A stretch of DNA of 64,000 nt, from assembly GCA_963665775.2 (NCBI GenBank), contig CAXXTF010000002.1:576001-640000 (forward strand). The letters are read 5' to 3'. The position numbers were made by a program, and so were the translations under genes. The notes beneath the pieces are model-generated. The model worked only from the letters and a program-made list of their open reading frames with translations. It made no database searches and was not told the DNA's origin. The stretch's first letter is position 1, and the number at the start of each line of letters is the position of its first letter. Shown piece after piece: positions 25,650 through 27,719 of the stretch. This DNA comes from Dehalococcoidia bacterium. Its GTDB lineage: Bacteria > Chloroflexota > Dehalococcoidia > SM23-28-2 > RBG-16-64-32.

Positions 25650-25751
25650 CCAGCGGCCAGGGCACTCAGCTATATTGACAACAGTCGTAATTACCCCCTT
25701 GACGTAGGTACTTGTTCATGGTACGATATCCCCGAAAGGTAGGTAGAAACC

Positions 25752-26627
25752 ATGAACAAGTACACAATCCGAGACCTCGATAGTCAGTTCCCCACGGACG
25801 ATGCTTGCCTGGACTGGCTGAAGGATTACCTCTACCCCGATGGCATCTTTTGCAAGGTCTGCCAAGCCGTCACTAAGCATCATCGGATTAAGAGCCGCAC
25901 TTCCTACTCATGTGACCGCTGCGGGCACCATGAGCACCCGATGGCCGGAACGATTTTCGAGAACTCACGCACCCCGCTCCGACTGTGGTTCCATGCTGTA
26001 TTTCTCATGGCCTCCACACGCTGCGGCATTTCGGCTAAGCAGCTTGAGCGTCAATTGGGCGTCACCTATAAGACGGCTTGGCGCATGTTCAAGCAGATTC
26101 GTACCCTTCTGGCTGAGCCGCCTAGCCTCCTCTCCGGCCAAGTGGAGGTTGATGAGACCTACATCGGCGGCAGGCCGCGTCAGAGCACCGACAGGCGAAC
26201 CGCCGCCCGAACCCGCATGAGTAACAAGTCTGCGGTTGTTGGCCATGTCCAGCGCGGTGGTAGGCTTCACGCCATCCACCTACCAGATGGTACAGCCAAG
26301 GTGCTGGTGCCCCTAGCTGAACAGTACATCATCCCTGGCTCCACGGTTTACAGCGACGAACTCCCCGCCTACAAGGCGCTTGCCCGTAAGGGCTACCAGC
26401 ACAAGCGGGTCCACCACGCTGCTAAGGTCTACGTTTCCGGCGACGCCCACACCAACACGATTGAGGGCTTTTGGAGCCTGCTGAAGCGCGGCATTGGCGG
26501 CGTCTACCATGCAGTTAGCGCGCAGCATCTACAATCCTACCTGAACGAATACGCATTCCGTTACAACCATCGACGTGATACTCAGCCTATGTTCGAGACG
26601 ATTCTCCGCCAGGTGGAGAAGACTTAG
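25752..26627 (+). CDS. IS1595-family DDE transposase
   Basis: Zn ribbon CKVC...CDRC, HTH 'ISAKQLERQLGVTYKTAWRM', 'VEVDETYIGG', 'YSDE', 'HTNTIEGFW', 'YLNEYAFRYN'. Confidence 0.96.
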   Translation: MNKYTIRDLDSQFPTDDACLDWLKDYLYPDGIFCKVCQAVTKHHRIKSRTSYSCDRCGHHEHPMAGTIFENSRTPLRLWFHAVFLMASTRCGISAKQLERQLGVTYKTAWRMFKQIRTLLAEPPSLLSGQVEVDETYIGGRPRQSTDRRTAARTRMSNKSAVVGHVQRGGRLHAIHLPDGTAKVLVPLAEQYIIPGSTVYSDELPAYKALARKGYQHKRVHHAAKVYVSGDAHTNTIEGFWSLLKRGIGGVYHAVSAQHLQSYLNEYAFRYNHRRDTQPMFETILRQVEKT

Positions 26628-27595
26628 CCCGGCGACTCACTTTCTTGAGAGCTGCTTCGAAGGTCCGACGCGTTAACCCCTGCATCTGCTTCGTCCGCTT
26701 TGGCTTCGGCTTCCTTCCGCTCTTCTTCTGTTGCTGCCCTGGGTCTCGCGACACTAGATCCCTCCTCTGCCAAAATCTTGGAAAGCCTCGCCGCGTCAGT
26801 CGTGATCGACTGGAGCTCTAGCGTGCGCATTGTATTAAACATCGTGGTAAGCTCTTGAGTCACCCGCGACGTGGGCTCGTATTGCATCCTGCCCCCGGCT
26901 ATGACGTGCCAAAGATCAGTAGTGCCGCCGACTCCGGGCGCTTCCTCGGCTCGTTTCTTCGCAAACAGAGCGATACGCATCGCTGAAAACCAATTTCTCT
27001 TGGGGCTGTACATCGCATGAGCAAATTCCGCTTCAGCATGCCCAGCGCCAATCCCTATCGCACAGAAGCCCGTTCCGGTCCAATTGCGCTCCCATCCAGG
27101 CCCCTCAATCGTATATAACTGAGCGTACTCCTGACCCTCTAGGGTATCGAATCCAGCGATGATGATTGAGCCTAAGTCGTTGTCGTCATCACCAATTAGG
27201 ATGCTTAACCGCTCGAAAAAGTCTGGTGTCCACTCTTTCTGACGGCTGATGAGACTGTCAACATCGAGACCGCAAGGGTGAAGATAGCGCCTCTCTACGT
27301 CTCTACGACGAATAGCCTGTACTTCCACTGCGACGACCTTCGCTAACTCCTGAACCGTACAGTCCTTCTCTACTCGCTTCCACGCATTCATGTACGCTTC
27401 ATAGAGAGAGTCAACCGATCCCGACATCAATACTGCCGTATTGTCACGAAACCAAGTCACCTTGGTCTGGTCAGCTAGTTCGTACTCTCGTATGCGTCTC
27501 GCGGTTATCATTCGGTCAGATGCTAAAATGATAGCTGAGCGCTGGACGCCCTCCGTGTCCAGGTAGGTAGACAATGCCGCTATGCAAACCGTCAT
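26624..27595 (-). CDS. Proteasome beta-subunit-like (Ntn-hydrolase) protein, IS passenger
   Basis: Begins M-T-VCIAA; 'ILASDRMIT', Lys in 'QTKV', 'IIIAGFD', 'LYTI', 'FCAIGIGAGHA', 'APGVGG'; alternative start 27649 adds an 18-aa basic extension. Confidence 0.7.
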   Translation of the reverse strand: MTVCIAALSTYLDTEGVQRSAIILASDRMITARRIREYELADQTKVTWFRDNTAVLMSGSVDSLYEAYMNAWKRVEKDCTVQELAKVVAVEVQAIRRRDVERRYLHPCGLDVDSLISRQKEWTPDFFERLSILIGDDDNDLGSIIIAGFDTLEGQEYAQLYTIEGPGWERNWTGTGFCAIGIGAGHAEAEFAHAMYSPKRNWFSAMRIALFAKKRAEEAPGVGGTTDLWHVIAGGRMQYEPTSRVTQELTTMFNTMRTLELQSITTDAARLSKILAEEGSSVARPRAATEEERKEAEAKADEADAGVNASDLRSSSQESESPG

Positions 27596-27719
27596 AGGCC
27601 GTCGTCTCCGCAGTACTCTCTTGCGCTTAAGGCGCTGCTGGGATATCATATCCCCGCTCCCCTACCTACGTCAAGGGGATAATTACGACAACAGTCGATA
27701 TAAGGCCTATCATAGCGTC

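Follow-up and report, generated by a model that had tools for sequence, protein, structure and literature searches.

The window is a stretch of 64,000 nucleotides (nt) from a Dehalococcoidia bacterium (GCA_963665775.2, contig CAXXTF010000002.1, positions 576,001–640,000 of the forward strand). At positions 25686–27687 it has an insertion sequence (IS) of the IS1595 family that is intact, is 2,002 bp in length and carries a passenger gene within its inverted ends, as proposed in an earlier note made from the DNA letters. The transposase gene (25752–26627, plus strand) encodes 291 amino acids (aa) and has no interruption. The passenger gene (26624–27595, minus strand) encodes a 323-aa protein with a proteasome-beta fold and is convergent with the transposase gene; the two stop codons overlap (26625–27 versus 26624–26). 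A third open reading frame (ORF), a micro-ORF of 55 codons, lies over the 3' end of the passenger gene (26587–26754, minus strand). The element appears to be a recently active 'transporter' insertion sequence (tIS), built in the proposed scheme of two converging genes, one at each end. We consider the identity of the element and its genes to be probable.

The terminal inverted repeats (TIRs) are located at positions 25686–25710 (plus strand) and 27663–27687 (minus strand). Each is 25 nt and they are alike at 24 of 25 positions; the core of the left TIR has a -35-like hexamer. The element is flanked by a target-site duplication of 8 bp, the left copy of which (25678–25685) is repeated exactly on the right (27688–27695). 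The exact repeat that is found mechanically is 11 nt (25677–25687 and 27687–27697) rather than 8, because the duplication and the TIR tips have letters in common. A duplication of 8 bp is expected for the IS1595 family, and the bounds of the element are therefore placed at 25686–27687. The transposase has an ISXO2-type DDE domain (PF12762, 5.2e-44, covering profile positions 2–153 of 153) and an N-terminal zinc ribbon (PF12760, 3.1e-08, 33.9 bits with a cut-off of 25.4), and it matches the NCBIfam IS1595 model NF033547 (6.4e-61, score 206 with a cut-off of 75 bits). The end sequence presumably resembles that of the ISNwi1 subgroup of IS1595.

The passenger ORF (26624–27649, minus strand) encodes 341 aa from its first ATG and 323 aa from its second Met at position 27595, which is followed directly by Thr. 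The shorter form is the likely one. A start codon is present immediately before Thr in 65 of 65 locus-encoded relatives, although this agreement is partly by construction, as the start reading of the relatives was anchored on the start of the tblastn match. In addition, the -10 box of a promoter-like site covers the upstream ATG of the 341-aa ORF, which fits the 323-aa start found in all relatives. The position of Thr directly after the start codon in the relatives implies that there is no propeptide.

The passenger is a proteasome-beta-fold N-terminal nucleophile (Ntn) hydrolase with Thr2, Asp27, Lys45 and Gly59 as active-site residues, an insertion at about residues 109–138 and long C-terminal helices. 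In an alignment of 46 passenger-family sequences (A1), Lys45 is invariant, and Thr2, Asp27 and Gly59 are each conserved in at least 90%. There are 55 homologues of the window protein, 17 of which have a precomputed PF00227 domain, and PF00227 is matched by 24 of the 46 A1 members (best 4.3e-10, with E up to 0.01 accepted). In the PDB, 176 sequences match the A1 profile at E up to 10 (best 2.8e-5), and every one of the 60 matches listed is a proteasome subunit or HslV. In the profile alignments Asp27 falls on Asp17, Lys45 on Lys33, and Gly181-x-Gly183 on the Gly-Ser-Gly turn. The earlier note had read this turn as Gly-Ile-Gly; the two glycines are indeed invariant, and the middle residue, Ile in the window, is variable across the family. 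The weak PDB profile matches include one HslV chain (0.0022), and the PHROG 'peptidase HslV family' is touched by six of the 46 members (best 2.1e-05).

Structure modeling agrees with the profile. The AF2 model of the passenger has a pLDDT of 92.3 and a pTM of 0.83, and a Foldseek search with it gives at least 500 matches, headed by actinobacterial 20S beta subunits and Anbu. Alignment by VIA-align to the 20S beta subunit of A. fulgidus (1j2q_H) has a Z of 24.9 and an rmsd of 2.4 A with 194 of 202 chain residues aligned, and model residue 2 superposes on the mature Thr1 (chain residue 1). All of 1000 re-aligned chains have a Z of 8 or more. Profile, model and fold search bear out the motif order, helical insertion and charged tail that had been read from the sequence, and the structure alignment bears out the fold itself. 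The model shows helices at residues 61–74 and 81–108, extra helices at 112–117 and 124–134, and strands from residue 142. Helices 184–193 and 202–216 are just 8 residues apart. The C-terminal part consists of a 38-residue helix (244–281), one more helix and a disordered acidic tail.

Removal of the initiator Met would expose the Thr nucleophile, and Asp27, Lys45 and Gly59 would complete a proteasome-type center. The passenger is predicted to be an active Thr1 peptidase or transpeptidase. The two-helix insertion after helix 2 and the long C-terminal helix probably govern access or assembly. The passenger is presumed to be ATPase-independent on the single ground that no ATPase is co-encoded: the ORF list has no ATPase gene inside the element, and the genome as a whole was not screened for HslU.

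The earlier note called this protease a solitary passenger, which does not hold. The last approximately 130 nt of its gene also encode a conserved basic peptide in the +1 frame. The micro-ORF that contains it (26587–26754) has a GTG start with a strong ribosome-binding run 6 nt upstream, and it extends 37 nt beyond the passenger stop, where it overlaps the 3' end of the transposase gene. The identification is based on frame-specific conservation and on profile matches outside the training set. The closest comparison is within the clade of the window, which consists of the window, L003, L004 and L007; the L007 protease is 38% identical to that of the window. All four have a conserved stretch of 20 codons, and its offset from the protease stop, 50 nt upstream, is identical in each. 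Nucleotide differences at +1-frame codon positions 1, 2 and 3 are 32, 17 and 51, respectively. The identity of the peptide is 13–16 of 20 in the +1 frame versus 4–10 of 17 in the protease frame, and for the distant L007 it is 15 of 20 versus 4 of 17. Third codon positions of the protease account for 421 of 712 nucleotide differences in the gene core versus 11 of 49 in the last 20 codons (Fisher p = 7e-7, from pairs that are not independent). Start codons of the micro-ORF are present at matching positions in the clade, with a strong ribosome-binding run 6 nt upstream in three of the four.

The same peptide is found in deeply separated protease lineages. In an alignment of the micro-ORF from 10 loci, the window among them (A2), one residue is invariant and four are nearly so. 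Across a stretch of 13 codons the +1 frame of these loci has a mean identity of 43.6%, compared with 19.3% for the protease frame and 29.6% for the third. The third frame is closed by stops, and the conserved +1 stretch extends past the protease stop in two loci. A profile built from A2 has two matches outside the training set among 14,181 ORF pieces (1.2e-5 and 1.1e-3), and both are 3' ends of protease genes. One of these two lies behind an inserted IS3-type element. At L057:5001–7232 a family protease gene is interrupted by an IS3-type element with rve domains, and the micro-ORF motif is behind the insertion.

The A2 profile also has one in-frame match, to the C-terminal tail of a 375-aa Trypsin_2-type peptidase (1.2e-5; 2,497 pieces). 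The gene of this peptidase (L124:1503–2630, the same place as L095:11–562) is 0.9 kb from an IS1595 transposase that is 65% identical to that of the window, and an NYN-domain gene is beside it. Iteration of the micro-ORF profile yields nothing further than L057, L066 and L095.

Two other groups of small ORFs were noted. In a second clade of the protease family, mostly Actinomycetota and Chloroflexota (L043, L059, L061 and L063), an ORF of 55–75 codons starts 5–35 nt before the protease stop, and these ORFs have a helix-like stretch and a conserved C-terminal motif in common. Small ORFs that converge on the transposase 3' end (L098:2252–2464, L099:2375–2554, L100:1281–1511 and L101:2377–2595) resemble the micro-ORF by eye. 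They were rejected because the profile matches are not significant (E of 0.037 and 0.13, with lower scores for the others). The transposases of L098–L101 belong to IS1595 relatives that are passenger-free or have other cargo.

The basic peptide is most likely a separate micro-protein of 55 aa, translated from its own GTG and ribosome site. A different way of expressing it is a programmed +1 ribosomal frameshift, by which the peptide would be the true C-terminal tail of the protease. The occurrence of the peptide in frame on an unrelated Trypsin_2-type peptidase, where it follows an acidic linker, fits such a tail, as joining the two frames gives the same layout. A purine run that resembles a ribosome site, and C- or G-runs, are also present just before the motif in several lineages, and the window has a run of four G at the junction. 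Nevertheless, there is no slippery site common to the sequences upstream of the motif, and two of the four sequences in the clade of the window have none. Start codons with ribosome sites are located at matching positions upstream. Fixed fusions would be expected of a true tail, yet the peptide is in frame on the protease in none of 199 family proteins, and two pattern matches lay elsewhere in the proteins. The frameshift is considered unlikely, and a separately started micro-protein is favored over it as considerably the more probable of the two. The chance that nothing is translated from the +1 frame appears small.

The protease family is large, patchily spread and without a described function. 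Among 1.84 billion cluster representatives, those matched by the A1 profile number 1,541 when E is limited to 1e-30 and 3,817 when it is limited to 1e-10. The nearest ESM-Atlas clusters have PF00227 on 25–45% of their members, and one of these clusters is 63% viral where the taxa are known. In the genome collection the protease gene is found at 65 loci from many phyla and a few archaeal bins, and it is present on seven viral contigs. In the class of the window it is present in 8 of 201 genomes.

This distribution bears on the possibility that the passenger is an ordinary host stress or quality-control protease that replaces HslV or the proteasome and was picked up by the IS. No other PF00227-type gene was found in the window's own genome, which is 91% complete, and Fuchs et al. 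2021 (PMC8665760, section 4) suggest ATP-independent clearance roles for orphan homologues. Both points count in favor of a host protease. The presence in just 8 of 201 genomes of the class, the occurrence on viral contigs and the variable surroundings rich in mobile elements speak against it, as does the conserved overlapping peptide, which is not known in housekeeping homologues. A host protease is thus regarded as quite unlikely. As to the surroundings, a check of homologue neighborhoods suggested in the earlier note shows that they are variable and have many integrases, recombinases, terminases, phage genes, toxin-antitoxin genes, restriction genes and other defence-type genes. The note's expectation that the relatives would be on mobile elements rather than at fixed chromosomal places is in line with this result.

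The sole recurring neighbor gene of the protease is an IS1595-type transposase. When searched with a transposase profile, 12 of 68 non-duplicate loci have such a transposase beside the protease, two of which are remnants. The count is 11 of 55 for loci with at least 1 kb downstream, and one of eight for further loci from a survey of the class. The two genes are nearly always convergent, as in the window, with stops that overlap or abut. Inverted ends around both genes, flanked by perfect 8-bp duplications, are present at L013, L030, L039 and L046, which are from Verrucomicrobiota, Acidobacteriota (twice) and Gammaproteobacteria. L003 has the inverted ends and lacks the duplication. The arrangement of transposase and protease is also found on two viral contigs. 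The link between IS and protease may be old with many losses, or it may have arisen by repeated capture.

Weak IS1-type transposase matches are present beside the protease at L015:5923–6822 and L018:6265–7131 (0.0031 and 9.4e-09), and at L015 the arrangement is convergent and abutting, as in the window. L008 and L009 are from two bins of one study that are labelled as different phyla (Binatia and Pirellulales). A region of at least 6 kb, which includes a patatin-like gene as well as the protease, is identical in the two, and either an artefact of binning or a very recent transfer could account for this.

The recurring arrangement raises the possibility that transposition uses the protease as an accessory factor, which might trim or destroy the transposase or a host inhibitor and be retained on that account. 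The convergent layout with overlapping or abutting stops recurs at 12 of 68 loci in several phyla, and in three shallow clades transposase and protease have been inherited together. Comparison with the relatives of the transposase points the other way. Of 401 genomes of the phylum searched with the window transposase, 71 give a match at 1e-20. The 29 best other transposase loci of the phylum (35–65% identity) all lack a proteasome-like gene within 1.5 kb. Some of these relatives are elements of 1.7–2.0 kb with other cargo, namely DUF2299, DUF6941 with a HicB-like gene, and an uncharacterised protein of 260–287 aa. Transposases as close to that of the window as that of the nearest protease-carrying relative therefore lack a protease, which implies that transposition works without it. 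The absence of the protease from all 29, together with the other passengers of some, indicates that it is cargo and not a part of the transposition machinery. At least 56 of the 68 protease loci have no such transposase, and the IS-linked members are scattered on the protease tree. A function as an accessory factor is consequently very unlikely. The protease, with the basic peptide, would instead be a self-contained module that is carried on several kinds of mobile element (insertion sequences, prophage-like contigs and islands) and is not needed for transposition.

It is most improbable that the conservation of the 3' end is at the nucleic-acid level, as a terminator, an antisense pairing site of the convergent transcripts or a transposase-binding site with no second peptide: the region is the meeting point of convergent genes, the openness of the +1 frame is within chance and there is no homologous annotated protein, but the differences follow the codon pattern of the +1 frame (third > first > second position), the peptide is kept in the transposase-free loci L007, L024, L033, L044, L056, L022 and L034, and it is in frame in another protein. 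No terminator-like site was found at the 3' end of the passenger gene.

The protease would be an active, ATPase-independent threonine peptidase, and the small basic peptide would set its activity or its target. The peptide is suggested to regulate, target or be cut by the protease. The protease in turn would benefit the mobile element that carries it. The suggested benefit is defence, counter-defence or addiction, and this is the weakest step of the scheme. In its full form this reading holds that the protease and the basic peptide are a new two-part, protease-based addiction or anti-phage module of insertion sequences, prophages and islands, in which the peptide is a tethered or free regulator or substrate, a portable tail that is common to the trypsin-fold peptidase. 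The full form is a possibility that we hold to be doubtful. The biological role, taken alone, is tentative.

Several observations weigh against the proposed scheme. With regard to the protease, the window protein itself has no Pfam or NCBIfam match, with PF00227 not reached at E up to 1, and the equivalent of Ser129 in the Gly-Ser-Gly turn is not conserved. With regard to the peptide, the codon-position counts rest on four related sequences, and just 12 of 69 protease loci have the motif at a significant level, namely the 10 A2 rows and the two outside matches. The openness of the +1 frame was considered as evidence for the micro-ORF and rejected: the mean is 36.2 open codons versus 35.5 in synonymous shuffles, 126 of 300 of which reach the observed value, and the amino-acid composition of the protease tail accounts for the openness in full. 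A search of 5.8 billion proteins gives no annotated homologue of the micro-protein, and Pfam has no family for it; the lack of in-frame copies on the 199 family proteins belongs here as well. With regard to the link with the IS, the scatter on the protease tree amounts to seven changes for nine IS-linked rows. Identities of transposase and protease are correlated (Pearson 0.74, Mantel 1/5,000; Spearman 0.03), with the correlation coming from three shallow pairs only. With regard to the role, none of 46 family members is matched by a PADLOC 2.0 model at E up to 0.001, and a role in defence is therefore guessed from the surroundings. None of the public runs listed with the element is on record as RNA, which says nothing on expression.

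Two further results are neutral. A complex prediction for protease (A1) and micro-protein (A2) has a score of 0.01, which is evidence neither way. A metagenome scan for DNA of the window's clade found one locus that ends at residue 208 and so has no 3' end.

The expression signals of the element are close to its ends. By consensus matching, five inward-type promoter-like sites are found versus 1.0 in shuffles. The site for the transposase (25699–25727, plus strand) has its -35 box in the core of the left TIR, and that for the passenger (27645–27674, minus strand) has its -35 box in the right TIR, with 10 of 12 consensus matches; both are consensus matches only. The TIR core is the -35 box of an inward promoter-like site at both ends, and related elements of other phyla have the same core in their ends. 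Each gene would be driven by an inward promoter with the conserved TIR core as its -35 box.

A hairpin is located over the start codon of the transposase (25708–25763, plus strand). It consists of a perfect inverted repeat of 15 nt and has a folding energy of -27.1 kcal/mol (z -5.1), and none of 200 shuffles is equally stable. In the hairpin the start codon is base-paired to a segment adjoining the left end of the IS. A transcript from the element's own promoter would have only the 3' arm of the hairpin. A hairpin over the start codon that forms in read-through transcripts is the classical means by which an IS is silenced against transcription from outside. The hairpin may guard here against translation of the transposase from such transcripts.

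The insertion site is 37 nt after an hflX-type GTPase gene and about 30 nt before an arsR-type regulator gene, which is followed by a methyltransferase gene. At this distance from the arsR-type gene the IS may have split the operator or promoter of the arsR-methyltransferase pair. The flanks (25671–25685 and 27688–27702) are nearly palindromic, and an inverted-repeat finder reaches 15 nt into them. Both junctions are bridged by contigs of public runs from several studies, and none of the 15 joints listed, of 24, skips the element to give an empty site in public-run contigs. In the five nearest genomes examined, hflX has neither arsR nor the transposase or the protease after it, so the original target is not reconstructable.

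A second copy in the same genome (L002, C2:858429–862169) is 99% identical over IS bases 1–741. It is broken at base 741 by a gene for a 441-aa DDE_Tnp_1_4 transposase (PF13701, 3.6e-58), and the remainder of the copy, any passenger included, is absent from the assembly. The end sequence is present just three times in the genome. In one public run, read depth over the first 741 IS bases is about 2.6 times that of the flanks. The genome has three more IS1595-type transposase genes (C2:102287–103120, 302633–303136 and 647928–648737), with 34–40% identity to that of the window.

Cargo-carrying IS1595 elements and orphan proteasome homologues are each known, and their pairing was not found described. 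The earlier note knew of no described IS with a proteasome-like passenger, and none was found in a literature search that did not cover ISfinder. The window adds a clean, intact element with its duplication and evidence that the protease is an exchangeable cargo. It also adds the overlapping peptide in its clade and the same peptide as an in-frame tail of a trypsin-fold peptidase. Bacterial orphan proteasome homologues are a large set of proteins of unassigned function. Their recurring home in a small, well-defined IS indicates that they work as self-contained units on mobile DNA, and the 2-kb element is a compact object to clone. The second reading frame, if translated, is a candidate partner, regulator or substrate, a part of the module that gene callers have missed. 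For IS biology, a protease joins the known kinds of passenger, and closely related transposases are seen to carry quite different cargo.

The element is similar to known tIS of the IS1595 family (Siguier, Gagnevin and Chandler 2009, as cited in PMC3129680) in its ISXO2-type DDE transposase with an N-terminal zinc ribbon, its TIRs and its 8-bp duplication. It also has in common with them a passenger unrelated to transposition inside the ends, a layout that is repeated at L013, L030, L039 and L046. It differs in the kind of passenger, as no paper found links a proteasome-like passenger with the IS1595 family. Among proteins of known structure, 20S beta subunits (1j2q chain H, 1pma and 1q5q) are the best match of the passenger, with Z of 23–25, the N-terminal Thr on the mature Thr1, and the equivalents of Asp17, Lys33 and Gly47 conserved in the passenger family. 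Unlike the 20S beta subunits, the passenger has no alpha subunit, no propeptide and no conserved Ser129; the identity is 14–21%, and the passenger is longer by insertions of about 60 residues and by C-terminal helices and a tail that come to about 70.

Among the orphan homologues, the passenger is closest in described features to PHI. According to Fuchs et al. 2021, PHI has a beta-type fold with a Thr/Asp/Lys center and neither a propeptide nor an AAA+ partner. Helices 1 and 2 are followed by a long helical insertion, the C-terminal helix is long as well, and the proteins occur widely but sparsely in bacteria and in some archaea. The passenger is like PHI in each of these. PMI-2 to PMI-6 are marked in the same text (PMC8665760) by a large insertion between helices 3 and 4, which the model of the passenger lacks. 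The passenger would thus belong to PHI rather than to PMI-3 or PMI-4, by described features only. Fuchs, Alva and Lupas (2021; PMC8665760) found no genomic context that points to function, and the word stem 'transpos' does not occur in their paper, whereas the window shows a recurring IS context and an overlapping peptide. The phage-borne homologues PPH and AAH, as described in that paper, resemble the passenger as proteasome-like genes that are spread by mobile elements and whose function is not known. PPH is about 140 residues and lacks helix 2, in contrast to the 323 residues of the passenger. Group I proteins are compact and have no insertions, whereas the passenger has an insertion and is itself carried by an insertion sequence.

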